From Spirochaetia bacterium (GTDB taxonomy: Bacteria; Spirochaetota; Spirochaetia; SZUA-6; Bin103): 64,000 bases of DNA. The DNA lies in assembly GCA_965203905.1 (NCBI GenBank), contig CBDBDQ010000005.1, positions 2,272,001 to 2,336,000 of the forward strand, read 5' to 3'. Both the position numbers and the translations under genes were made by a program. The notes beneath the pieces were generated by a model. The model searched no databases. It was not told the DNA's origin and saw only the letters and a list, made by a program, of their open reading frames with translations. Positions 1,412-49,485 of this stretch are shown here, piece after piece (the first letter of the stretch is position 1; each line of letters begins with the position of its first letter).

Positions 1412-2215
1412 ATGAAGACCATGGTGCGAGCGGGCATTGCGGGTCTGCTGCTGGCGGTGGGGTTGCCGCTGGCGGCCGAAGAGCATGACGCGGGGATACT
1501 GGTAACCGCGGTAGATCCGGACGGGCCGGCGGCCGCCGCCGGCATCGAGCGCGGCGACCTGATCCTGAGCATCGACGGCCGGTCGGTTGCCAGCGAGCGC
1601 GATCTCGCGGCGGCGTTGGCGGCCACCGAGGAGTCGCAGGTCAACCTTGCCGTCAAGCACGGCGACGAGGTGCGGGATCAGATGGTCTCCATCGACCGCG
1701 TCTGGGGACGCCCGCGGCTCGGGGTGAGGGTCCTGGCCGCGCCGGGCCATGGTGAAACTGAACGCCGGGACCGGATACCCGAGGTGCGCAGGTTCCGCTT
1801 CGACCGGCTGCCGGGTATGCCCGGAGCGCTGGTGACGGAGGTCGTCGAGGATGGTCCGGCCGCTGCCGCCGGTCTGCAGCCCGGAGACTGGATCACCGCG
1901 ATCGGCGACGAAGCCCTCGGAGACTCCAACGAGCAGCTCGCAGAGATCATCGAGAGTTACCAACCCGGCGCCAGTGTCGACGTGGAATTCCAGCGTGACG
2001 GCGAAGCGATGACCGCCACCGTCACCCTCGGCGCGAACCCGGACACCGGCAGCGCGCTGCTCGGCGTACGCTACCGCGTCCTGCCGTTCTTCGGCCGCGG
2101 CGACCTGGAGGACCTGCGCAACCTGTTCGACATGCTGCAGGAGCGTCTCCAGCGCCTCCGGCCCGCGCAGCCGGAGCCCGAGTTGGAGGTGCCGGACTCC
2201 AACCAGGCCCTGTAG
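1412..2215 (+). CDS. Secreted tandem-PDZ-domain protein
   Basis: Signal peptide, then two repeats of the type V..V..DGPAAAAG(I/L)..GD.I..I. No protease domain seen. Confidence 0.85.
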   Translation: MKTMVRAGIAGLLLAVGLPLAAEEHDAGILVTAVDPDGPAAAAGIERGDLILSIDGRSVASERDLAAALAATEESQVNLAVKHGDEVRDQMVSIDRVWGRPRLGVRVLAAPGHGETERRDRIPEVRRFRFDRLPGMPGALVTEVVEDGPAAAAGLQPGDWITAIGDEALGDSNEQLAEIIESYQPGASVDVEFQRDGEAMTATVTLGANPDTGSALLGVRYRVLPFFGRGDLEDLRNLFDMLQERLQRLRPAQPEPELEVPDSNQAL

Positions 2216-2221
2216 CGATTC

Positions 2222-2620
2222 CTACCGCGGCAGCGCGGCGCGGATGCGCGCGGCCTCGGCCGCCAGCGCCTCGTCACCGGGGAAGGGACTGACGCTCGCG
2301 AAGTCCATGTCGTGCATCCCGTCGATCGGGCTCACGTGGATGTGCACGTGCGCCACCTCCAGCCCGGCGATCAGCAATCCTACCTTGGTGGGCCGGTACG
2401 CCGCCTGCTGCGCGCGGGCAATGGTGCGCGCCACCCGCATCAGCGTCGCCAGCATCTCCTCGTCCAGGTCGATCCAGTGGTCCACCTCGGCCCGCGGTAC
2501 CACCAGCGTGTGACCGGGACGTAGCGGTTCCCGCGACAGGAAGGCGACACACTCATCCTCCCGCCACACGAAATGGGCCGGCAGTTCGCCGGCGATGATG
2601 CGGGTAAAGACGCTTGCCAT
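2222..2620 (-). CDS. HIT family protein
   Basis: SVFTRIIAGELP, GHTLVVP and the HVHIH histidine triad. Confidence 0.93.
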   Translation of the reverse strand: MASVFTRIIAGELPAHFVWREDECVAFLSREPLRPGHTLVVPRAEVDHWIDLDEEMLATLMRVARTIARAQQAAYRPTKVGLLIAGLEVAHVHIHVSPIDGMHDMDFASVSPFPGDEALAAEAARIRAALPR

Positions 2621-2642
2621 GACGCCGGCAGTGTAAACCGCG

Positions 2643-3461
2643 TCAGCGGAACAGGTCTTTGTCGAGGGGGCGGGGGATCATGGCGGCGCTGTGCGATTCG
2701 GCCGGCTGCGCCGGGCCGCCGTCCGGCGGCGGCAGGCCCTGCACCAGCGCGGCCGGAATGCGCTCGGTCGATTCGCCCATCACCAGCACGGCGGCGCCGG
2801 CGATGGCGTCGGCGCGGTTGATCACGGTTGCCTGCAACTCGCGGCCGTACAGGTCGCGGCTGCCGCGGCGGTCGTCGAGCACGGTGAGGCCGGCGGCGCC
2901 GATCGCGATGCCCACCGTGCCGAGCCGCCAGGGCCGGTTGCTGCTGTCGCTGATCACCACGCCGATCCGCTTGCCGGCGCGGGCCGAGACGGCGTGGTGC
3001 AGCCGCGCGGCGGTGGCGTCCGGCGCCGTAGGCAGCAGCAGGGCGGTGGCGCATCCACCGTGATCGACGTTGGACTGGTCGATGCCGGCATTGGCGCACA
3101 CCAGGCCCAGCCGATTGCGGGTGATCAGCACACCGGGGGCCTTGCGCACCACCTCGGTGGACTGCTCCAGGATGAGCTGGACCAGCCGCGGATCCTTGCC
3201 GGTCTCGGCGCCGAGCCGGGCCGCGCGCGCCGATGGCTCGACGCGATCGAGAGGGACCAGGCGCCCCTCCGCCTTGGAGACGATCTTCTGCGTCACCACC
3301 AGCACGTCGCCGTCGGCCGGGGCCACGTCCGCCGTGGCCAGCGCCGCTACCAGAATCTCCGTGAGGTCATCGCCCGCCGCCACCAGCGGGATACCGCTCA
3401 GCCCGATGACGGTGAGGCGCCCCACCGGCGCGTGACCGGCCGGCGCCGCGCTCGCTCCCAT
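2643..3461 (-). CDS. cofE: Coenzyme F420-0:L-glutamate ligase
   Basis: GDVLVVTQKIVSKAEGR, ANAGIDQSN and GVVISDS.NRPWRLG motifs of CofE/FbiB. Confidence 0.93.
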   Translation of the reverse strand: MGASAAPAGHAPVGRLTVIGLSGIPLVAAGDDLTEILVAALATADVAPADGDVLVVTQKIVSKAEGRLVPLDRVEPSARAARLGAETGKDPRLVQLILEQSTEVVRKAPGVLITRNRLGLVCANAGIDQSNVDHGGCATALLLPTAPDATAARLHHAVSARAGKRIGVVISDSSNRPWRLGTVGIAIGAAGLTVLDDRRGSRDLYGRELQATVINRADAIAGAAVLVMGESTERIPAALVQGLPPPDGGPAQPAESHSAAMIPRPLDKDLFR

Positions 3462-3467
3462 CGGGCG

Positions 3468-4169
3468 CTAGCCCTGGCCGACCAGCTTGATGCCGGCGTG
3501 GCTGAGGGTGTGACGCCGGTTGATCTGAATCAGCACGCTGGTGAGCGCCTCGGCCGCGGCTGCGTTCTCGATCGGGCCGGCGTGCCAGCCGGTCATGCCG
3601 GCGGCCCGCACCAACTCGATCACCCGGTCGCGCGCCGCCTTCTTGTTGCCGGATACCAGCACGTCGCACTCGATGGCGCCCTCCTGTTGCAGCAGGTCGG
3701 CGGCAACGTTCTGGAATGCCGACACCACCATTACCTCGTCGCCGAGGAACTGCTGGGCGCGCTTGCCGGCCGATCCCTCGGCGGGAAGCTGCACGGTGCC
3801 CACTCTGGGAGGCACCAGCGGAACCGTGACGTCGACCACGACCTTGCCGGTGAGGCTCGCTCGCACGCTGGCCAGGGTGGCGATCTGATGCGCCGCGGGC
3901 ACGGTCAGCACGACAATGTCGGCGGCCTGCGCGGCCGCCGCGTTGGTCGCCGCACGGGCGCTGGTCTCGGGATGGCGCCGGCGCAGATCGGTGAGCGCGG
4001 CCTCGGCCTTCGCCAACTCCCGCGAGCCGATCAGCACCGGGTAGCCGGCCCGCGACCAGCGCTGCGCCAGGCCGGTGCCCAGGTCGCCGGTGCCGCCGAG
4101 GATGGCGATGGTATGCCTGGGCCGAGAGTCCTTGGCGGCGGCCGCCGCCTGCGCTTCGCTGCGCATCAT
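3468..4169 (-). CDS. npdG: NADPH-dependent F420 reductase (F420H2:NADP+ oxidoreductase)
   Basis: IAILGGTGDLG, IGSR, VVDVTVPL, VVSAFQNVAA and EALTSVLIQIN. ATG overlaps the hxlR stop. Confidence 0.92.
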   Translation of the reverse strand: MMRSEAQAAAAAKDSRPRHTIAILGGTGDLGTGLAQRWSRAGYPVLIGSRELAKAEAALTDLRRRHPETSARAATNAAAAQAADIVVLTVPAAHQIATLASVRASLTGKVVVDVTVPLVPPRVGTVQLPAEGSAGKRAQQFLGDEVMVVSAFQNVAADLLQQEGAIECDVLVSGNKKAARDRVIELVRAAGMTGWHAGPIENAAAAEALTSVLIQINRRHTLSHAGIKLVGQG

Positions 4170-37159: not shown

Positions 37160-38944
37160 CTAGAAGCCCATCTCCCGCTTCAGATCCTGGTCGATCCAGA
37201 CCCGAGTCATAACGGTAGAATAGTGGCCATTCTTGGACAGACTGACCTCACCGTTGTAACCCTTGACCCACGGCTGCGCGACGTTGAACTGTGGGCTCAG
37301 TGGACCGGTAAGCGTCCACTGCAGTTCCAGCAGGCGCAGATTGACCGCCTTTGCCCACCGATTGGACTCCTCGAGCGTGGCAGCCGTGCTGGCGCGTTCC
37401 CAGGATTCATCAACCTCCGCGTCGCTCCCATTGGCCCCGTTCCAAATATGTCCCGTGGTGAATCTCGCAATGCCATTCCGCGGTTCATACGTGATAGCCG
37501 AGACCGACATGAGCATCCCGTCCGACGTATTGTCTCTCGTTAGCGCAGTGGATTGCGTAGCGTCCACCGTATGGATGGCGACTTCCACGCCAATCTCACG
37601 CCAGTAGTTGGCGATCAGTTCCGCGTAGCTCATATCGGCGCGAATATCGTAGTCCAAACGGGTCTCGAAGCCATCGGGATAGCCCGCCTCGGCCAGAAGC
37701 TGCTTCGCCCCTTCCGGGTCATACCGGTAGTATGGCTTGATCTCTTCGGGCCACTCTTCGAATGGCGTGCCGACGCCCATCTTGGAATTTGCCATCACTC
37801 CGTTCGGAGTCGGATTGCCGAAACCGCTGAAGAAAGTCTCGTTGATCGTCTCCAGATCCAGCGCCATCTGCATCGCCCGGCGCACGCGGACGTCGTTGAA
37901 GGGCGGGTTCTGCACGTTGTTGAAGATGAACCCGGTGCCGGCCCGAAACTCGAAGTTCCACATGTTGATCTCGGGATTCCTCTCCTGCAGGCTCTTCAAC
38001 TGATCGATCGACCTGATTTGAGAGTCGCCGGCAGTACCCAGCACATCGATCTTGCCCGAGCGCAGCGCCGCCAGCCGCGCCGCCATATTGGGCAGGATGA
38101 CGGCGTTGATCTCATCGACGTAGGGCAAGCGGTTCTGCGGAAACTTCTCATCGAACCCCCAGTAGTCGGAAACCCTGGTCCATTTCATGGAGGCGCCTTC
38201 GACCACGTCCGCGAGTTCCATCGGTCCCGTGCCAACCAGGTTCCGCCAATCCGTGATGTCGCCGTGTTCCCTGATCACCTCCGGCGGGTAGACCCAGGAA
38301 ACCCACTCGTCAAAAACCCTGGGCAGGGCTTCGACGTCCGGCCTCGACAGCTTGAAGACGACCGTGCGGTCGTCGGTGGCCGTGACCGATTCCAGGAATT
38401 CCTCTACCCCACCGGCCACGGTGCTGGCTTCGGTGAAGCCGCTGCCCAGCCCATAGAGCCGGTGGTAGTTGAATTCGACGTCGCTGGCGGTCAGCTCCCG
38501 ACCGTTCATCGGCGCCTTGTCGTGCCAGTGAACGCCGGAGCGGATGTGGGCGATGATCGTGGTCGCGTCGGGCGTCTCCCAGCGTTCCGCCAGCGCCCCG
38601 GTGAACACGGACCAGGGCAGGTCGTAGGTCCGCAGGTCGTTTACGCTCCGGTCGTACGCCCAATCCACGATGACCAGCTTCTCGACCACCTCGCTGACGT
38701 AGTGGGTGGCCCAGCCGCCGATGAACCAGGCATCCGTATGCTCGCCATAGTTGGGCCGGCCATAGGTGACGCTCCCGCCGTACTGCGGCGCCTCCACCAT
38801 CTCGCCGGTGGATGGGTCGAGCACCATCTCTTTTTCCATCGCCGCGGCCGGCTCCTCGTCTGCCGCAGCCGCCCAGAGGCCGGTTGCGGCCAAGCTGAGC
38901 ACGAGCACAAACACCAAGGTGTGTGCACCTCTTGAAAGAGTCAT
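37160..38944 (-). CDS. Family-5 ABC substrate-binding protein, cassette 2
   Basis: GGAGGAG RBS before ATG 38944. Signal peptide WAAAADEE and WHDKAPMNGRE. Confidence 0.92.
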   Translation of the reverse strand: MTLSRGAHTLVFVLVLSLAATGLWAAAADEEPAAAMEKEMVLDPSTGEMVEAPQYGGSVTYGRPNYGEHTDAWFIGGWATHYVSEVVEKLVIVDWAYDRSVNDLRTYDLPWSVFTGALAERWETPDATTIIAHIRSGVHWHDKAPMNGRELTASDVEFNYHRLYGLGSGFTEASTVAGGVEEFLESVTATDDRTVVFKLSRPDVEALPRVFDEWVSWVYPPEVIREHGDITDWRNLVGTGPMELADVVEGASMKWTRVSDYWGFDEKFPQNRLPYVDEINAVILPNMAARLAALRSGKIDVLGTAGDSQIRSIDQLKSLQERNPEINMWNFEFRAGTGFIFNNVQNPPFNDVRVRRAMQMALDLETINETFFSGFGNPTPNGVMANSKMGVGTPFEEWPEEIKPYYRYDPEGAKQLLAEAGYPDGFETRLDYDIRADMSYAELIANYWREIGVEVAIHTVDATQSTALTRDNTSDGMLMSVSAITYEPRNGIARFTTGHIWNGANGSDAEVDESWERASTAATLEESNRWAKAVNLRLLELQWTLTGPLSPQFNVAQPWVKGYNGEVSLSKNGHYSTVMTRVWIDQDLKREMGF

Positions 38945-38984
38945 ATCGATCTCTCCTCCATAGTCCGATGTTGAGAGTTCTGCC

Positions 38985-39325
38985 GGCGAGTTGCCCTTCG
39001 CTGCCACTCTCGCGCCCGCAACGCAGGCGGCCAGACAGAGAGGGCAATCTCTGGTGGTCACGCGCGCGGCATGAGCGTCACGAACTCAGGCCGCGCGCGT
39101 GGTGCGGTTCTTTGAGTATCAGCTTGCAGCTCCCTGTTGCACGGATTTGCGGAGTTCGACGCCGAGCGCGAGGCCGCGAGGCCGCGCGCTCGGCGCGCGC
39201 AGTGTGGCGGTTGTCCCGGTAGTTCACGGAGTGGGCTGGTAAGTGACGGAGTGCTGCCGCAGGCGCAGGGCGGGCGTACACGGAGGTGCGGCGCACGCCG
39301 CCCGGTTGGCCGAAGCGGTTAGTTA
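38985..39325 (-). promoter_or_regulatory. Long conserved leader/promoter region of cassette 2 (its continuation lies at about 43286-43397)
   Basis: Aligns by eye with 49069-49372. Contains a 12-bp stem (39059-39101) and a T(G/C)ACGGAGTG direct repeat with 20-bp period. Confidence 0.7.
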
Positions 39326-39919
39326 TTTCTCGGGTGAATGGAGAGTCAGGTGTTGTGCCCGCCCCGGGGGGGACTCCTCACCATTTGTCAAGGCGAGTTT
39401 TCGGTCGCTGGAGCATGAGGGCAGGTACCTTGCGGCCACCCGGAGGGATTAGATAAAACGGCGGCGGTAAAGGGGGAGGGGTGCGGGGAGGGGGTGTCGT
39501 GGCGCTGTGGATATGTGGATAAGTCCGAGGCGTCGCCGAGTGGTCAGTGGCTGCGTATTCCGGTGACAAGCCACCCATTCCGGGAAAGAGCCACCGGGGA
39601 GTGGTCCGATCCTGTGACAGTGAGTACAGCGGGGTGGCCTTTTTGAATCAATCTGACGGTGCGTGCAAAGGGAGTTCGGAGCGGGTAACGGCGTTCCGGC
39701 CAGAGTGTCCCTGGGTGGCCTGTTCGGGGGTGCCTGGGTACACCAACTTGGCTGAGGAAACTGCATCGACGGTGCTCGGATCTGCGTAAGCGACGCCGTG
39801 ATGTGCCGGAGGGTGCCACGTCGTCGACGGAGCGCCGGTGTCGGATTGTTGTTCGAGGTTCCGGGAGCAGGCGTGGCGAATCGCGCGGGGCCAGCGGTGC
39901 GGGTATAGCGCTGGGAACG

Positions 39920-40812
39920 GCGTTGACGGGCACTATTCTGATTTTCGGGGGTACTTGAGGTACCCCCGCAGGTTTGGAAGGGCCTCTGAGGGCCGCTGAG
40001 CGGCCGACTCTGACGCCGAGCGGCCCGCTGACGGCCAGGCGGCGGTGCCTGACGACCGTGGAGCGGGCCGAATGCCGAGATCGTGGGCGCGATGGTGCGC
40101 ATGCCGCCGCCGCTGCCGCGACCTCGACCGGTGGTCCGGCGGCCGGCAGCGGCAGTCGGCTCGGAACAGCAACCCGACGACTGCACGCAGGTTGCCTCGA
40201 GTGCAGTCCATGCGGACGCCGGAGCGGCGGACCGCGCGCGGTCGGCGACGCTGAGAAAGGGCGTTTGACGGGCACTATTCTGATTTCCGGGGGTACCCTG
40301 GAGTACCCCCGCGGGTTCGGAAGGCCCTCTGAGGGCCGCTGAGCGGCCGACTCTGACGCCGAGCGGCCCGCTGGCGGTCAGGCGGCGTCGCCTGACGACC
40401 GTGGAGGAATACGAATGCCCGAGGTCGCGGGCGCGACGGTGCGCATGCCGCCGCCGCTGGCGCGAACTCGACCGGTGGTCCGGCGGCCGGCAGCGGCAGT
40501 CGGCTCGGAACAGCAACCCGACGACTGCACGCGGGTTGCCTCGAGTGCAGTCCATGCGGACGCCGGAGCGGCGGACCGCGCGCAGTCGGCGACGCTGAGA
40601 AAGGCGTTTGACGGGCACTATTCTGATTTCCGGGGGTACCCTGGAGTACCCCCGCGGGTTCGGAAGGCCCTCTGAGAGCCGCTGAGAGACCGACTCTGAC
40701 GCCGAGGGGTCTGCTGACGGCCAGGCAGCGGTGCCTGACGGCCATGGAGGGGTCCGAATGCCGAGATCGCCGGCGCGACGGTGCGCATGCCGCCGCCGCC
40801 GCGAACTCGTGG
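39920..40812. repeat. ~343-bp tandem repeat, about 2.6 copies
   Basis: TTGACGGGCACTATTCTGATTT starts at 39923, 40265 and 40608, and the units align throughout. Confidence 0.92.
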
Positions 40813-40878
40813 TGGCAACCCCGGAGCGCCGCGCGTAGCAGTAACGCGCCCGCCGCGCTCGGGGCGCCGGGCGGGGCG

Positions 40879-41639
40879 CTAGCCCAGCCGCTCGGTTGTA
40901 TCCCGGTGGGCACGCTCGGCATACAGCTTGCGCACCGAATTTCCTTCCAGGTTGATGCGGTGGGCGCCGTGCACGATGCGATCACAGATCGCGTCGGCGA
41001 TGGTGGGCTCGCCGATCACCTCATGCCAGGACGACACCGGCAGCTGCCAGACCATCAGGGTCGAGGCTCGACCGTGGCGATCTTCGAGCATCTCCAGCCG
41101 CCACAGCCGCGCCAGTGCATCCAGCGGCTCCAGGGCAAAGTCGTCGATTAGATGATGATCAGTGCCTGCTTGCTGATCTTCTCCAGTTCGCGCACGTAGC
41201 TGCCGTCAGCCTTGGCCAGACGCAGTTGCCCGAACAGCCGCGAGGACGCATGGTAGCCGACCCGGAACCCGCGCAGACACGCCTGATGGCCCAGCGCGGA
41301 GGCGAGGAAGCTCTTCCCGGAACCGCATTTGCCGGTGATGATCAGGTCCTGGTGGTGCTGCACCCAGCGGCAGTCGGCCAGGCGCAGCAACTGGTTCTGG
41401 TCCAGGTTGCGGCGCAGCGAGAAGTCTACCTCCTCGATGGCGGCCGGGTAGCGAAAGCGGGCCGCCTTCAGCAGCCGCCGCAGCCGCCGCGCATGGCTCC
41501 CACTCGGCATCCACCAAGTGGGCCAGCAACTCGTCGGCGCTGCACTGGCCTGGGTCTCCAGGCTGGTGCGCAGCGCCCGCGCCATGCCGTGCAGGCGCAT
41601 CTGGTCGAGTTGGTCGAGGGTGGCCTGGTTATTGGTCAT
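40879..41639 (-). pseudogene. istB: IS21 helper ATPase IstB, frameshifted
   Basis: MRLHGM, RRLRRLLKAARFR, GKCGSGKS, IDDF, LEDRHGRAST and ADAICDRIVH.AHRINL.G.S.RK, spread over several frames. Confidence 0.9.
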
Positions 41640-41748
41640 CGTCGCGATAGCCCTCCGAGGACCAAGTCTCGGCGTATCCGGTGGTGGCAGGCTACCGGAT
41701 CGAACCCGTTGTTCGCGCTATCACAGTCTCATCTGACCTGCCCCTCGA

Positions 41749-42995
41749 TCAGGCGGCTGTCGAGCGGCTAACCCGGTGCTCGGGATCATACGGCGTTCGA
41801 TTACGCAACATCGCGCAGGCCACCTTCAGCAGCCGGTCCGAGACGGTTCGCAGGGCGCGGGCATGGCGCTGGCCGCGCCCGCGCAGCTCGGCATACCGCT
41901 CCCGACTCGCCGCATCGTGCTGGATCGCCACCCGCGCCCAGTGATACATCGCTTCCCGCAGCCGCTTGTTGCACGCACGTCGCATCATCACCACGCAGCT
42001 CTTCCCCGACCGCCAAGTCACCGGCGCCACTCCGGTCAGGATGCGCAACGTGTGATAGTCTCGTGCTGCCAGGGCCTGCGTGGCCTCTGCGAGCAGCGTG
42101 GCGAGCACGATCCGACCGATTCCGGGCATGGAGCGTAGGATGGACACGTCACGCTGCTCTTCTGGTTCTGCCGAGTCGTCGTTGGCCACGATTTCGGCGA
42201 CTAATTCGTCCAGACGAGCGTGCGCCTGGTCGATCAGCTCGGTCACCGGTCGCAGCCGCACTATGACGCTCTCGATGTGCGCCTTCGCCGCCGCTGTCGT
42301 GCCGCGGCTTACCTGCAGCGGCTGCTGCCGCAGGATGTGCAGCACTCCGGCAGCATTGTGGCGTCGGATGCGGTTTCTCTTCAGGATCGCCGCGATCGAC
42401 GCCTTGCGGATCCGCGCTGCCTCCGCCGGCGTCGGTGCCTTCTCCCACAGCTCCAGGAACCAGGCGGCACCGAGATCACCGCCCAACTCCAGCATCTGCG
42501 GATAGTAGCGGCGCAGTTGCTCGCGCATGCGATTGATCAGCCGGTTGCGTTCCTGCTTCAACTCCTCCCTCATGCGCGACCATTCCCGCAACTCGATCAC
42601 CTCCGCTGCCTCCACCTGCAACTGGCGAAAACTACGCCGATCGGTGCGCAGCGAGTCTGCCAACACCCGCGCGTCGCGGCGGTCGTCCTTGGCCCCGGCC
42701 GCCGTAAACCGGTCGCGAAATCGATCCAGCTGCTTGGGATTGATCGCGTACACCTGCACCTCGCGCTGCAGCAGCATCTCCACCACCGCTCCATGCGGCA
42801 TTTCGATCGCCGCGTGCACGCTCGCCAAGTGCCCGCCGGACAGCTCTTCCAACCATGCGCACAGGTCGGCGATGCCGGCGCCGCTGTGCGCCACCTGGCG
42901 CTCCCCGATTACCTTGCCGTCTCCTTCGAGCACGCACACCTGATGCTGTTCGGTCGCCCAATCGACTCCCACGAACACTGTTCGTCGCCTGCCAT
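41749..42995 (-). CDS. IS110-family recombinase/transposase. True start is probably ATG 42995 with a 1-bp deletion near 42978.
   Basis: DEDD domain (FVGVDWA, AIE, KDDRRDA) and C-terminal SMPGIG...GVAPVT.RSGK. Confidence 0.92.
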
Positions 42996-42999
42996 ACTA

Positions 43000-43212
43000 C
43001 CCCCGAGAATCGTCTGTAGCTCGGCTGCCACGATGTCGTTTCCGCCCCTGTACTGGTGCTCCCGGCCTCCGGTGCTCCTGCAACCTCACGCCTTGGCACT
43101 ACTCCTCACTGGGTATCCATCGCGGCTCTCCCACCGGGGCACACGTCCCCCCCCCAGGTGCTCGCTGGCGCTCGGGGGGCCAAGGTGCTCCCGGCAGGTT
43201 GCCTTGCCCGCC
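43000..43212 (-). ncRNA. Predicted IS110 bridge RNA
   Basis: Non-coding left end downstream of a TAGAAT -10 box. Contains GTGAGGAGT (matches the right end), AGCA (complement of the left end) and GGGGAC (matches the target flank). Confidence 0.65.
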
Positions 43213-43423
43213 CGGGATTCTAGCAGTCCCCGACGAACTATCGAACTATCTACTGTTTAAAAGGGTACAGGGGGGGTAGAACGCACCGGTTGCGCGGTCT
43301 TCAACCGGCAGCCGCGCTGACGGGATCCTCAATCGGTGCACATGCGCTCCCAATCCCACGTCGGCAAAGTGTCACACACGTACGGCCACCTGTCAAACCT
43401 GTCAATGAACAGTAGTCGGTGGT

Positions 43424-43556
43424 CTATTGCATTCGGAGCACCTTGATGACGCGGTCGCGTTCAAGGACTTGGTACACGAGGCGGTGCTGGATGTTGATCC
43501 GGCGCGAATTCGCTCCGGTCAGATCGCCAATCAGTTTCTCGAACGGTGGCGGGTTG
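43424..43556 (-). pseudogene. yoeB: Txe/YoeB-family toxin C-terminal fragment
   Basis: Not in the ORF track. Translates as NPPPFEKLIGDLTGANSRRINIQHRLVYQVLERDRVIKVLRMQ*. Confidence 0.8.
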
Positions 43557-43599
43557 CAGCCGGGAACGGTTCCCGACGGCCGCGGCGCTGGGCAGTCCC

Positions 43600-44448
43600 C
43601 TACCAGGTGACGTAGTGCGGCGACGGGCCGAGTCGCTGGAGGTGCAGGGGCAGCAGCTCGTTCGGCAGCCCGTGGATCCGGTCTGCGGCGGCGATCCTGG
43701 TGCAGATCACGCTGTTGCGGTACTTGCGCGCCTGCTTCAGATCAGTCGAGCGGACCTGGCTGGTCGGCAGAATGCGCCCATGGACCTCCATGTCGTTGAT
43801 CGCGGTGAGGTACCCCCCATGCACCAGGTAGCGGTCGAACGCTTCGATCAAGGCCGCGGCGTCGCCACGTGAGTCGGCGATGCCCTTGAGATCGAGGTAC
43901 TCCGCGAACGACAGCGGGTAGAGGTGAAAGTCGACGCGCGGTGCCCGATCTCGGCGTCCCGGGAGACGGGTGCGCGCTTCCCGGATAATGACGGAATCGG
44001 AGCCGGTCAGAACCAGAACCACGTCGTCGAGCAACCCCGCGTCCGCGAGGAACTTGACACCGCGGTCCCAGTCGCGGATGTAGGTGACCGCGTCCACGAT
44101 CAGGTAGGCCGGCAGCGCCGGTGACCGGTCCGGGGCAACCCGCGTGAGCAGCGAAACCAGCGCGTGGTGGTCGTCGATAAGCTCCCCGGTCAGATAGAGA
44201 ATGCGCTGTGGCTGCACGCCTGCGTGCAACAGGTCGGCCATCCACTGCTTGAGGACCGTCGACTTGCCCACCCGACGACCACCGGTGATCGAGTACACCC
44301 CCGGCTGATCAACGGGGAGGTGTGCCAGGATGGGGTAGCGGTAGGCGATGGGCAGCCGTTGCAGTTCCCGGAGTTGCGGATCCATGGTGCGGAACAACGC
44401 CGGATCGTCGAGATGCAGGTTGTGAGGGGCAAAGCGCGGGTCGACCAC
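43600..44448 (-). pseudogene. AAA_14-type ATP-binding protein with an internal deletion of most of the DUF4143 half
   Basis: GGRRVGKST, YLIVDAV, VLTGS, LYPLSFAEY and YLVHGGY, then an abrupt short tail. Confidence 0.75.
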
Positions 44449-44500
44449 TGTGATTTCAGATAATTATCCTCCATGGGCAATCTACCCTACGGCAGCATAC

Positions 44501-47244: not shown

Positions 47245-49029
47245 TTAGAAGCCCATCTCCCGCTTCAGATCCTGGTCGACCCAGACGCGGGTCAAGAGCG
47301 TAGAGAAATTGCCTTCTCCGATTCGGATCTCGCCGTTATAGCCCTTGATCCAAGGCTGGGCGACGTTGAACTGCGCGCCTACCGGACCGGTGATAATCCA
47401 GTGCTGTTCTGCGATGCGCATATTCGCCGCCTTGAGCAACCGATTCTGCTCTTCAATAGTGGGAGCCGCGTTGGCGGCATTCCAGAGAGCGTCATATTCC
47501 GAATCGTCATGTGCGACCGGGTTCCAGATGGACTCGGTGGTGAAGGAACGCGATTGACCGATCGCGTCATACGTGAGACCTGATGTCCAGGCGACCAATC
47601 CGTCTGAACTATTCTCATGCAAGAACACCGTGTGTTGCGTACCGTCGATAGGCTGGATCTCGACTTCCACGCCAATCTCACGCCAGTAGTTCGCAGCCAG
47701 CTCCGCGTAGTTGAGATCGAACCGATTCAGGTAGTCCAGACGGGTCGTGAAGCCATCGGGATAGCCTGCTTCAGCCAGCAGTTGCTTCGCCCCTTCCGGG
47801 TCATACCGGTAGTATGGCTTGATCTCTTCAGGCCACTCTTCGAATGGCGTGCCAATCCCCAGCTTGGCATTGTTCAAGAACGCCTGCGGCGTCGGATCGG
47901 CCATACCGCTGAAGAAGGTCGCACTGATCGTCTCCAGATCCAGCGCCATCTGCATGGCCCGTCGCACGCGGATGTCATTGAATGGCGGTTTGTTAATATT
48001 GTTGGGCGCAAATGCGTGTTCGCTGCGGAACTCGTAGGTCCACGTATTGATCTCGGGATTGGTCTGGTGCAGGCTCTTTACCTGATCGATAGACCTCAAT
48101 TGAGAGTCGCCGACGGTCCCCAGCACATCCACCTTCCCCGACCGCAGCGCGGCCAGACGCGCCGCAGGATCCGTCATGATGAGGGCGTTTATCTCGTCGA
48201 CGTAGGGCAAGCGGTTGTGCGGGAACTTCTCATCGAACCCCCAGTAGTCGGGAGCCCGGGTCCACTTCAGAGAGGCGCCTTCGACCACGTCCGTCAGCTC
48301 CATCGGCCCCGTGCCGACCAGGTTCCTCCAGTCCTTGATGTCGCCGTGTTCCTGGATGACCTCCGGAGGGTAGATCACGGATGTCCACCAGTCGAAGATT
48401 TTCTGCAGGGCGTTAACGTCCGGGTTCGTCAGCTTGAAGACAACCGTGCTAGCGTCGGTCGCCGTCACGGACTCAACGATTTTTTCGATCCCAGCGGCGC
48501 CGGTGCCGGCTTCGGTGAAGCCGCTGCCCAGCCCATAGATACGATGAAAGTTGAACTCGACATCGCTGGCGGTCAGCTCCCGGCCGTTCATCGGTGCCTT
48601 GTCGTGCCAGTGAACGCCCTGGCGGATGTGGACGACGATCGTGGTCGCGTCGGGTGTGTCCCAGCTTTCCGCCAACGCCCCTCGGAGGACAGAAAAGGGC
48701 TGATCCCAGCTCCGCCAGTCATATTCGTTCCTGTCTATCGCCCAGTCCCCGATGACGAGCTTCTCGATCACCTCGCTGATCCAGTGGTGGGCGAAGCCGC
48801 CAATGTACCAGACGTCCGTATGCTCACCCAGGTTGGCCCGGGCATAGGTGATGGTTCCGCCATAGCGCGGGGCCTCCACCATCTCGCCGGTGGATGGGTC
48901 GAGCACCATCTCCTTCTCCATCGCCGCGGCCGGCTCCTCTTCCCCGGCCGGACTGGCCCAGATGCCGGTCGCGACCAGGGCAAACACGAGCACAGCCACG
49001 AAGGGGTGTGCAATTCTTGGAAGATTCAT
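47245..49029 (-). CDS. Family-5 ABC substrate-binding protein, cassette 3
   Basis: GGAGAG RBS before MNLPRIAHPF. Signal peptide WASPAGEEE. Paralog of 37160-38944. Confidence 0.92.
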   Translation of the reverse strand: MNLPRIAHPFVAVLVFALVATGIWASPAGEEEPAAAMEKEMVLDPSTGEMVEAPRYGGTITYARANLGEHTDVWYIGGFAHHWISEVIEKLVIGDWAIDRNEYDWRSWDQPFSVLRGALAESWDTPDATTIVVHIRQGVHWHDKAPMNGRELTASDVEFNFHRIYGLGSGFTEAGTGAAGIEKIVESVTATDASTVVFKLTNPDVNALQKIFDWWTSVIYPPEVIQEHGDIKDWRNLVGTGPMELTDVVEGASLKWTRAPDYWGFDEKFPHNRLPYVDEINALIMTDPAARLAALRSGKVDVLGTVGDSQLRSIDQVKSLHQTNPEINTWTYEFRSEHAFAPNNINKPPFNDIRVRRAMQMALDLETISATFFSGMADPTPQAFLNNAKLGIGTPFEEWPEEIKPYYRYDPEGAKQLLAEAGYPDGFTTRLDYLNRFDLNYAELAANYWREIGVEVEIQPIDGTQHTVFLHENSSDGLVAWTSGLTYDAIGQSRSFTTESIWNPVAHDDSEYDALWNAANAAPTIEEQNRLLKAANMRIAEQHWIITGPVGAQFNVAQPWIKGYNGEIRIGEGNFSTLLTRVWVDQDLKREMGF

Positions 49030-49068
49030 GCTGATCTCTCCAGACTCTTGATTGTGAGAGCGCTGTCG

Positions 49069-49485
49069 GGGCGAGTTGCCTTTCGCTGCCACTCTCGCGC
49101 CCGCAACGCAGGCGGCCAGACAGCGACGGCAATCTCTGGTGGTCACGCGCGCGGCATGACCGTCATGAACTCAGGCCGCGCGCGTGGTGCGGTTCTTTGA
49201 GTATCAGCTTGCACCTCCGTGTTGCCCGGATTTCCGGAGTTCGACGCCGAGCGCGCGGCCGCGAAGCACGCGCAGGTCGGCGGCGGTCCCGGTAGTTGAC
49301 GGAGTGGTCTGGTATGTGACGGAGTGATGCCGAAGGCGCGACGCACGCCGCCCGGTCAGTTGAGCGTTAGTTGCCAATTGCACCATCTTCAGCCGCAAGC
49401 CGCGCTGAAGGGGTTGGTTACCGGTGCACATGCGCTCGCATCCCCCTTCGGCAGAGTGTCACACCCGTGTGGCCACCTGTCAAAT
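49069..49485 (-). promoter_or_regulatory. Uninterrupted conserved leader/promoter region of cassette 3
   Basis: Homologous to 38985-39325 joined to 43286-43397. Confidence 0.7.

Follow-up and report, generated by a model that had tools for sequence, protein, structure and literature searches.

The locus and its transposase

The window analysed here is a 64,000-nucleotide (nt) stretch of DNA from a Spirochaetia bacterium (contig CBDBDQ010000005.1), whose genome is termed G000 below; positions 39,326-43,423 of it are shown. On the minus strand, this part of the window contains a non-coding left end, a transposase open reading frame (ORF), 2.4 kb of further DNA and a right end, with runs of C's at both outer borders. 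The block 43272-39373 (~3.9 kb) is very probably a single insertion sequence of the IS110 family, guided by a bridge RNA and inserted in a homopolymeric C-run that precedes a solute-binding protein gene. What counts as established in this assessment is where the element ends, which guides and RNA stems it has and what the passenger DNA is; the promoter, the order of events and mobility are deductions. The copy looks damaged, and the element, though instructive, belongs to a known kind and is ordinary within it. Its main parts are as follows.

43273-43279, minus strand: left target (LT), CTA and four C's; chromosomal flank, end of the motif GCAACCGGTGCGTTCTA plus C-run
43271-43272, minus strand: left core dinucleotide CC; family loci read LT-CC-CTGTACC on the left and ...GAGT-CC-RT (right target, RT) on the right
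42979-43270, minus strand: left end (LE), non-coding, beginning CTGTACCC and encoding the bridge RNA; conserved in nine relatives from the C-run on
41749-42978, minus strand: transposase ORF, 409 amino acids (aa), IS110 family, open only from GTG 42978
39373-39551, minus strand: right end (RE) region, with TTGACA 39391-39386 as predicted -35 box and the left donor (LD) at 39381-39373
39366-39372, minus strand: right core CC (39372-39371) and the C's of the right target (39370-39366); chromosomal flank

The transposase has the domain pair of the IS110 family, an N-terminal DEDD RuvC-like domain (PF01548, 3.3e-38, residues 3-160) and a C-terminal Tnp (Transposase_20) domain (PF02371, 8.6e-16). 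In NCBIfam it matches NF033542, 'IS110 family RNA-guided transposase', with 162.5 bits against a cutoff of 140. The closest solved structures in the PDB are ISCro4 and IS621, and the D, D..D and S-x-PGIG motifs can be aligned to ISCro4. One full copy of the element is present in G000, and relatives were matched in 11 of 61 related genomes. Within the genus, transposase relatives occur in 6 of 10 genomes (76-90% aa identity), and a sister-genus genome, G012, holds five identical relative copies at 51% identity.

The right end

The right terminus TTGACAAATGGTGAGGAGT (39391-39373) lies 2,376 bp beyond the transposase stop. Its last 9 nt recur in the left end, and this match is not beyond chance within the window alone: ten shared 9-mers were counted on the same strand when the left end was compared with the 2.45 kb that follow the stop; 300 shuffles averaged 6.1 and reached 17 at most. 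TTGACA occurs once in these 2.45 kb, directly adjoining the 9-nt match. The right end was therefore judged from relatives.

The same terminus plus C's is found ~1.36 kb downstream of orthologous transposases in two genus copies, L004 and L006, where the flanks after the terminal C's are unrelated to one another and to the window. Three contigs of genome G006 begin with the 19-nt terminus and continue into three different flanks. Identity of the RE region is 80% with the final 180 bp of the L006 element and 91% with the L004 terminus. Moreover, the five identical G012 copies end in a homologous terminus, TTGACGAAAGGTGGAGAGT plus 10-33 C's, ~150 bp after the stop. These shared termini with unrelated flanks confirm a right end at 39373, 2.4 kb past the transposase, as an earlier note on this DNA had proposed. 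By comparison with relatives, it is correct and unusually distant from the transposase.

Species-representative genomes were also scanned with a degenerate right-end motif, which returned at least 101 stretches (~139 chance matches were expected) and 80 loci. Among the matches listed, 37 of the 80 loci have a homologous transposase upstream on the same strand; GAGT-CC is present in 36 of these 37, and the terminus lies at most 343 bp from the end of the transposase match in 33, the others being at 382, 457, 1126 and 4236 bp. The donor ends TTGACAAAnGGTG(G/A)GGAGT-CC ... CC-CTGTACCCTT are common, again among the matches listed, to IS110 relatives with 42-57% aa identity (L066-L145). These relatives come from metagenome-assembled genomes labelled Acidobacteriota, Gemmatimonadota, Binatia, Poribacteria, Methylomirabilota and others, and each has target guides of its own. 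The donor TTGACAAAnGGTG(G/A)GGAGT-CC-CTGTACCCTT is invariant in the lineage, which spans several phyla. The two ends of the element are unlike each other, without terminal inverted repeats and with the core CC on both sides, as is typical of IS110.

The left end and its boundary

DNA homology with all nine genus relatives extends past 43225 to 43275/6, in the C-run 43276-43270, and the flanks of these relatives turn unrelated only upstream of the C-run that precedes TGTACCC. The five G012 copies have the same left pattern, with homology up to the C-run and divergence beyond it. In the wider family, the left junction reads LT-CC-CTGTACC(C/T)TT. Because of the homology of the nine relatives and the form of the family junction, the true start is placed at 43272-43270. 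The alignments thus set the element proper to begin at 43270, after the core CC 43272-43271, with TGCTAGAAT as an internal sequence; the latter is invariant in seven aligned genus copies and is not found in the G012 type.

The earlier note had read the unit as 43225-39372, with a junction promoter TTGACA-17-TAGAAT, with AGCA and GGGGAC as guides and with GGGGAC^CCCC as target. This version is most improbable. Every string that it quoted does exist at its minus-strand position (TGCTAGAAT at 43225-43217, TTGACAAATGGTGAGGAGTC at 39391-39372, GTGAGGAGT at 43109-43101, AGCA at 43060-43057 and GGGGAC at 43150-43145), and the arithmetic yields a perfect 17-bp spacer. However, the 47-51 bp upstream of 43225 are kept in nine of nine relatives although the flanks differ, so that a left end at 43225/43226 is not tenable. 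Aligning other copies, which the note itself had suggested as a check on the ends, moves the left boundary ~50 bp outward. CGGGGAC is then internal, and GGGGAC is no match to an outside flank; it aligns with the right target guide and handshake guide of the family. The evidence on AGCA and on the target, given below, also speaks against this version.

The 9-mer GGGCGGGCA occurs both at 43213-43205, just after TAGAAT, and at 39364-39356 in the right chromosomal flank. This double occurrence is probably due to chance in G+C-rich DNA.

The insertion site and target

One conserved intergenic motif accounts for both flanks, with one half in the 120 bp left of 43276 and the other in the sequence right of 39372. 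When intact, this motif reads GCAACCGGTGCGTTCTA + C8-14 + ...ACACCTAAC...GAGAAATAAC and lies upstream of paralogous solute-binding protein (SBP) genes. Six uninterrupted paralogous or orthologous sites (G000:C5:950110-949980, L060, L061, L062, L063 and L064) join the homologue of 43277.. straight to the homologue of 39371.. via the C-run. Since the two flank halves are contiguous at these sites, the inserted block is 43272-39373, and it represents one insertion.

The empty sites hold CTA plus a C-run, without GGGGAC, and do not bear out GGGGAC^CCCC as target. Given the guides UUGGCCCCCC and G9/AC in the target loop of the RNA (next section), the target is read as (T)GG/CTA plus C-run with core CC; by sequence, it can thus be written (TGG/CTA)+C-run.

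It could also be supposed that the element is shorter and ends near 41741, that the distal TTGACAAATGGTGAGGAGT is an unrelated solo remnant of a right end, and that the 3.9 kb are not one unit. Homology between genomes does end at 41741, and solo remnants resembling the right end and 51-bp right-end-only units do exist (L051/L065, L172, L175, L177, L173, L176 and G000:C5:6861160). Near 41741, however, there is neither a terminus like the right end nor a C-run, and one conserved site is split between 43273-43279 and 39366-39372. Moreover, the homology to the right-end regions of L004 and L006 covers 179 bp, not merely 19, in the same orientation downstream of orthologous transposases. The short element is accordingly very unlikely, and a single 3.9-kb insertion is preferred.

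A start of the element after TGTACCC, with C-run+TGTACCC as the target, is suggested by one uninterrupted site, G000:C5:950110-949980. It was rejected since TGTACCC is missing from 5 of the 6 uninterrupted sites. This start is also disfavoured by AGUACAGGGG, which lies on the 3' side of the loop that holds the left donor guide, as expected of a right donor guide.

The window contains an SBP_bac_5 gene at 47384-49484, and there are dozens of SBP_bac_5 paralogues per genome in the genus. Several of these paralogues carry the C-run motif upstream, and the three G006 right flanks resemble such upstream regions.

The bridge RNA and its guides

The left end encodes an RNA with a target loop followed by a donor loop. 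Its structure was taken from an alignment of 22 sequences, comprising the window, four genus copies, G012 and 16 family loci. The stems and guides are listed below.

43184-43198, minus strand: outer stem of the target loop, 5' strand; pairs with 43142-43130
43174-43183, minus strand: left target guide (LTG), UUGGCCCCCC; same sense as LT plus core
43145-43155, minus strand: right target guide (RTG), nine G's at 43155-43147, and AC at 43146-43145, the AC being the handshake guide
43130-43142, minus strand: outer stem of the target loop, 3' strand; from the 22-sequence alignment
43120-43126, minus strand: outer stem of the donor loop, 5' strand; pairs with 43033-43027
43101-43109, minus strand: left donor guide (LDG), GUGAGGAGU; reads in the same sense as the 9 nt that close the right end
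43096-43099, minus strand: inner stem of the donor loop, GUGC; pairs with GCAC at 43059-43056
43045-43054, minus strand: right donor guide (RDG), AGUACAGGGG; complementary to the core CC plus CTGTAC at the LE start
43027-43033, minus strand: outer stem of the donor loop, 3' strand; ends the bridge-RNA core 43198-43027 (172 nt)

All three helices covary. In helix 1, the outer stem of the target loop, 12 of 13 pairs have changed on both sides and 94.8% of the alignment cells are paired; in helix 2, the outer stem of the donor loop, all 7 of 7 pairs have changed on both sides. Helix 3, the inner stem of the donor loop, is 100% paired; at its pair 138/180, 16 sequences have CG and 6 have UA. Overall, 94.5% of the cells are paired, compared to 31-47% when the 3' partner is slid; changes on both sides are found in 20 of 24 pairs, and none of 500 shuffles reaches the observed values. 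A single-sequence fold of the left end gave a z-score of -0.71 with the C-run paired to the G-run, and a search of 38500-44500 in the window against Rfam 15 at E<=1 returned no family match. Contigs from the RNA library X16 lie on 43036-43130, which is part of the donor loop, and on the IS21 part of the element described below; as contigs, they give no transcription level or ends.

The donor guides correspond to the ends of the element. The LDG, in DNA GTGAGGAGT, exactly equals 39381-39373, and in 18 of 21 family loci the left end repeats the right-end 9-mer exactly, two more being off by one base and one being without it. The match also covaries (A/G): G012 has GTGGAGAGT at both places, and L095 has the A-variant of the window. 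The 9-nt match reported by the earlier note at 43109-43101 therefore stands as the left donor guide, within an internal loop. The RDG, in DNA AGTACAGGGG at 43054-45, is the complement of CC+CTGTAC, and CAGTACAGG is kept across the family. In this arrangement, the donor loop would recognise the element itself, namely its right end (...GGTGAGGAGT) through GUGAGGAGU and its left end (CC-CTGTAC) through AGUACAGGGG. AGCA, which had been proposed as a further guide, lies in the 3' strand of the covarying inner stem of the donor loop. Thus, of the matches that the earlier note expected to fall in internal loops rather than in stems, GTGAGGAGT does so and AGCA does not.

The target guides were judged by comparing family loci with their own flanks. 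A complement of core plus RT is present at the RTG position in 16 of 21 family loci (one of them doubtful), mostly followed by AC or AG, and the handshake AC of the window complements the GT that closes the right end. The last seven LT positions plus core match the LTG position at 7 or more of 9 positions in 10 of 13 family loci, compared to 4 of 150 cross-pairs. The window LTG matches the flank of L004, GTGGCCCCC, at 8 of 9 positions. Two other LTG candidates, GAUGGAUACCC and GGGGGUAG, were discarded, as they have no family support. The strand logic follows that described for IS621, in which a loop pairs with both strands, the bottom one through its 5' side and the top one through its 3' side (PMC11208160), and the concept of the handshake guide is that of PMC11208158.

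The left end thus holds what is expected of IS110: a structured RNA with two internal loops, donor guides, and target guides that match flanks. Together, the profiles, the covarying stems and the guides bear out the earlier assignment to the IS110 family and the placing of a bridge RNA in the left end.

Promoters

Two promoter features lie in the left end.

43262-43267, minus strand: TACCCT, predicted -10 box of a circle-junction promoter, 18 bp from TTGACA after joining via one CC
43217-43244, minus strand: resident promoter-like site TCGATA-16-TAGAAT with TG before the -10 box; could express the bridge RNA from the integrated copy

In a circular intermediate, the right-end TTGACA (39391-39386) would stand 18 bp from the left-end TACCCT. 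Both hexamers are conserved in the family, in which left ends start CTGTACC(C/T)TT. By analogy with IS621, whose -35 box is described as lying in the right end (PMC11208160), TTGACA is plausibly the -35 half of a junction promoter. This part of the earlier proposal is retained. Its other part, TAGAAT as the -10 partner, is not: as the element starts at 43272-43270 and not at 43225, TTGACA-17-TAGAAT would never be formed, and TAGAAT has its own upstream TCGATA at 16 bp and TG. This resident site is the one promoter-like site found in 39300-43400, where 0.5 are expected.

The IS21 passenger and the 3' region

The distance of the right end from the transposase is accounted for by the DNA between them.

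41741-41748, minus strand: last 8 bp after the stop common to relatives; homology to relatives ends here
41645-41740, minus strand: 96 bp linking the IS110 body to the IS21 fragment; neither the rest of G000 nor 10 genus genomes gave a match
39552-41644, minus strand: 5'-truncated IS21-family element, corresponding to positions 1734-4157 (3' 58%) of a 4,157-bp element

The IS21 fragment contains a broken istB gene in two pieces (41639-41148 and 41091-40879), identified as IstB by Pfam (PF01695) and NCBIfam (NF038214), followed by 2.6 copies of a 343-bp tandem repeat (40799-39909; TRF) and a right terminus ...ACGCA. It is 80-86% identical to two full copies in G000, one at G000:C5:629942-634098 and one in inverse orientation near 1344373. 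These full copies are 100% identical and have IstA- and IstB-sized frames, inverted TG..CA ends and duplications of 4-6 bp. The nested copy retains only the broken istB and the right terminus and is a remnant. The IS21 remnant and the tandem repeat that the earlier note had placed inside the element are both confirmed by these matches.

The IS21 homology ends exactly at 39552, which is the IS21 right terminus, and the adjacent 179 bp match the end of L006 (80%). An internal half-site like those of LD or the right donor was looked for at the boundary 41741/41740, where 5 of 10 positions match by eye. In relatives, the native 3' region is plastic: a 610-bp module is present twice in L006 and once, along with other DNA, in L004, and the copies in genome G005 have more than 1.5 kb downstream of the stop in common.

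The right end therefore lies 2.4 kb from the stop for two reasons. The non-coding 3' part is already long in the genus (~1.36 kb in L004 and L006), and in the window a nested IS21-family element has replaced the native part. In the simplest history, an IS21 copy would first have inserted 179 bp from the right end, and a later deletion would then have removed the istA half together with the native IS110 3' region. The element thus contains foreign DNA between its transposase and an authentic right end, with boundaries set by relatives and empty sites, as is characteristic of cargo-bearing IS110 elements.

The full IS21 copies have a 1.66-kb tail with ~3.7 copies of the 343-bp repeat, an unusual feature in IS21. 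The IS110 3' regions of L004, L006, L015, L017 and L029 contain a related repeat in the opposite orientation. In addition, a 70-bp stretch in the window, 39527-39456, has 8 other copies in G000 with 79-84% identity, apart from this element.

State and mobility of the copy

The transposase frame of the window differs from that of its relatives at the start.

42909-42995, minus strand: ancestral start ATG (42995), out of frame; opens a 28-codon dead-end frame

In nine of nine relatives, an ATG preceded by a GGGGGTGA/GGAGGTGA box opens the long frame, and the protein begins M(S/A)TEQ..W. The window has lost one G of a TGG codon near 42976/42975 (codon 7), and its long frame is open only from GTG 42978. 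Because this 1-nt deletion uncouples the ancestral ATG and ribosome-binding site, the copy is probably crippled. Contigs of sequencing runs X2 and X3 have the extra base, and contigs of run X1 do not. The start region also varies among relatives in G005: the 9-bp unit ACCGAACAG (TEQ), which is single in most relatives, is doubled in L008 and tripled in L014 and L022, lengthening the N-terminus slightly by in-frame tandem expansion.

The frameshifted start is one of several points that weigh against the main reading of a guided insertion at 43272-39373. The uninterrupted site G000:C5:950110-949980 reads CTA-C8-TGTACCC-CCGGG and so contains the first 8 nt of the left end (CTGTACCC) with no element; CTGTACCC is absent from the other five uninterrupted sites. 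The sequence may be the footprint of an excision in which the CC within TGTACC-C served as a pseudo-core, and this explanation needs an added assumption. The helices that were tested for covariation had been derived by RNAalifold from the very same alignment. In the free-RNA fold, the LTG C-run pairs with the RTG G-run, and the status of both as loops rests on comparison within the family. The LTG matches the window's own flank, CTACCCCCC, at 6 of 9 positions, or at more with wobble pairs. An 18-bp spacer with TACCCT as -10 box makes a weak promoter. Lastly, no RE-to-LE joint is listed in the contigs of the sequencing runs, which are contigs and not reads.

It is possible, if doubtful, that the composite is a working cargo carrier, in which the IS21 fragment was already aboard at entry and the 3.9-kb unit still excises and re-inserts, via the GTG start or with transposase supplied in trans. 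The left end, the right end, the four guides and the 409-aa ORF are all intact, and IS110 recombination is described as requiring just two ends and the RNA (PMC11208160). Natural IS110 loci of up to ~9 kb are reported to circularise (bioRxiv 10.64898/2026.08.14.744561). Both junctions specific to the composite are present at ~99% identity in contigs of runs X2 and X3 (records 17, 19, 24 and 28), and two contigs depart from the window at the element ends: an X3 contig (record 30) fits 43016-43276 and then has 24 letters unlike the window, and in an X2 contig (record 16) 23 letters unlike the window come ahead of 39363. These loose ends may, however, stem from other, canonical copies with the same ends. 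Moreover, the codon-7 frameshift takes away the ATG and ribosome-binding site of all nine relatives, and the element is single in G000, where a second full-length homologue that could act in trans is missing. None of 10 other genus genomes has a contiguous IS110/IS21 junction, and the exact 23-nt junction between IS110 and unassigned DNA has no match in JGI metagenome contigs. The whole unit was found as this single copy, neither in a second context nor as a circle. A damaged IS110 element with a nested passenger is thus preferred, and mobility of the 3.9-kb composite in this copy is unlikely.

A joint in run X1 that connects 39306 to 43367 (skipping 4060; side 30) was considered as an excision product. 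It lies 66-90 bp outside the ends and is most simply a paralogous site. Runs X2 and X3 cover the immediate flanks thinly, and no weight was placed on this.

Variation at the junctions

The five identical G012 copies (L009, L016, L023, L027 and L030) have right C-runs of 10, 33, 28, 11 and 28 and left C-runs of 5-10, so that the length of the junction homopolymer is highly variable.

A unit of ~51 bp, GGCGGGAGCTCCAAGAATTCGTTTCGCGGGGG plus the 19-nt right-end terminus, occurs at least five times (L172, L175, L177 and L168 in G005, and L173 in genome G001). It has C-runs of 5-35 on either side, with CCTA before, and represents a right-end-only mini-element or a remnant. At L168/L014, the left end of a full element adjoins one of these 51-bp right-end units. 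At three other places (L176, which is G001:C1:1593786; G000:C5:6861160; and a loose end of run X1 at 39392), termini ...GGTGAGGAGC are fused to CCTGTA(C/G).. or CCTGCA.., followed by unrelated DNA. These fusions look like truncated RE-LE junctions or the ends of sister elements.

The L008 copy (G005:C4:165600-176794; L033, L172) has no right-end motif within 7 kb. Its nearest same-strand right-end motif lies ~9.7 kb past the stop, beyond two tandem 2.2-kb units, and the copy may be an element of ~11 kb.

As a tentative proposal, which is rather unlikely as it stands, the lineage would be one of homopolymer-targeting recombinases whose register of strand exchange could slip, and the composite could still move with its IS21 passenger. 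The LTG (C6) and the RTG (G7-9) are mutually complementary and the core CC lies within the C-run, from which it follows that the register could slip. If true, such slippage would account for junction C-runs of 4-33, for re-insertion beside existing ends (L014), and for by-products such as the 51-bp right-end-only units between C-runs and the CTGTACCC footprint.

Relation to known systems

The element resembles IS621 of E. coli in several respects. Both have DEDD/RuvC-like and Tnp domains and a left-end RNA of ~172-177 nt with the target loop before the donor loop, as described in PMC11208160 and PMC11208158. The same accounts give IS621 a 2-nt handshake guide after the RTG, a core dinucleotide at both ends and a -35 box in the right end. 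In contrast, the proteins are distant (phmmer E 4.5e-10, C-terminal domain only; 409 aa versus a 328-aa chain), and the core is CC here and CT in IS621. The target here is a homopolymeric C-run, which makes LTG and RTG mutually complementary; the left end has an additional resident promoter, and 2.4 kb, not tens of bp, separate the stop from the right end.

Expanded, cargo-bearing IS110 loci with DNA added downstream of the transposase are reported by Hu et al. (bioRxiv 10.64898/2026.08.14.744561), whose account gives a dereplicated median IS110 size of ~4 kb and includes tandem non-coding repeats. As in those loci, DNA has been gained here between the conserved transposase module and the right end, with tandem non-coding repeat units beside the transposase and 3' regions homologous to flanking DNA. 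However, the added DNA in the window is a truncated IS21-family transposon, and loci with alternative transposases are treated separately in that preprint's account. The window element also differs from the loci described there in that it carries neither resistance nor adaptive genes.

ISPpu9 and ISPpu10 of Pseudomonas putida, which are also of the IS110 family, likewise insert into an intergenic motif that is conserved and repeated, and ISPpu9 has an extra module downstream of the transposase. By their published descriptions, on which this comparison rests, the targets of ISPpu9 and ISPpu10 are REP or intergenic repeats and not C-runs. The passenger shares IstB (PF01695, NF038214) with the IS21 family, but is without istA and the left end, and its istB is broken.

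Significance

The biological weight of this copy is small, because adaptive cargo and signs of activity are absent here. The case shows how the boundaries of an IS110 element are correctly set, as the guides, the empty sites and the sister copies agree; a promoter-shaped coincidence had misplaced the left end by ~50 bp. In addition, it provides a dissected example of an IS110 element that has grown at its 3' side by a nested transposon insertion, which fits the recent claim, as put forward in the preprint by Hu et al., of a continuum of IS110 sizes. Finally, a variant that reads C-runs could help in the study of bridge recombinases on low-complexity targets and of their register.

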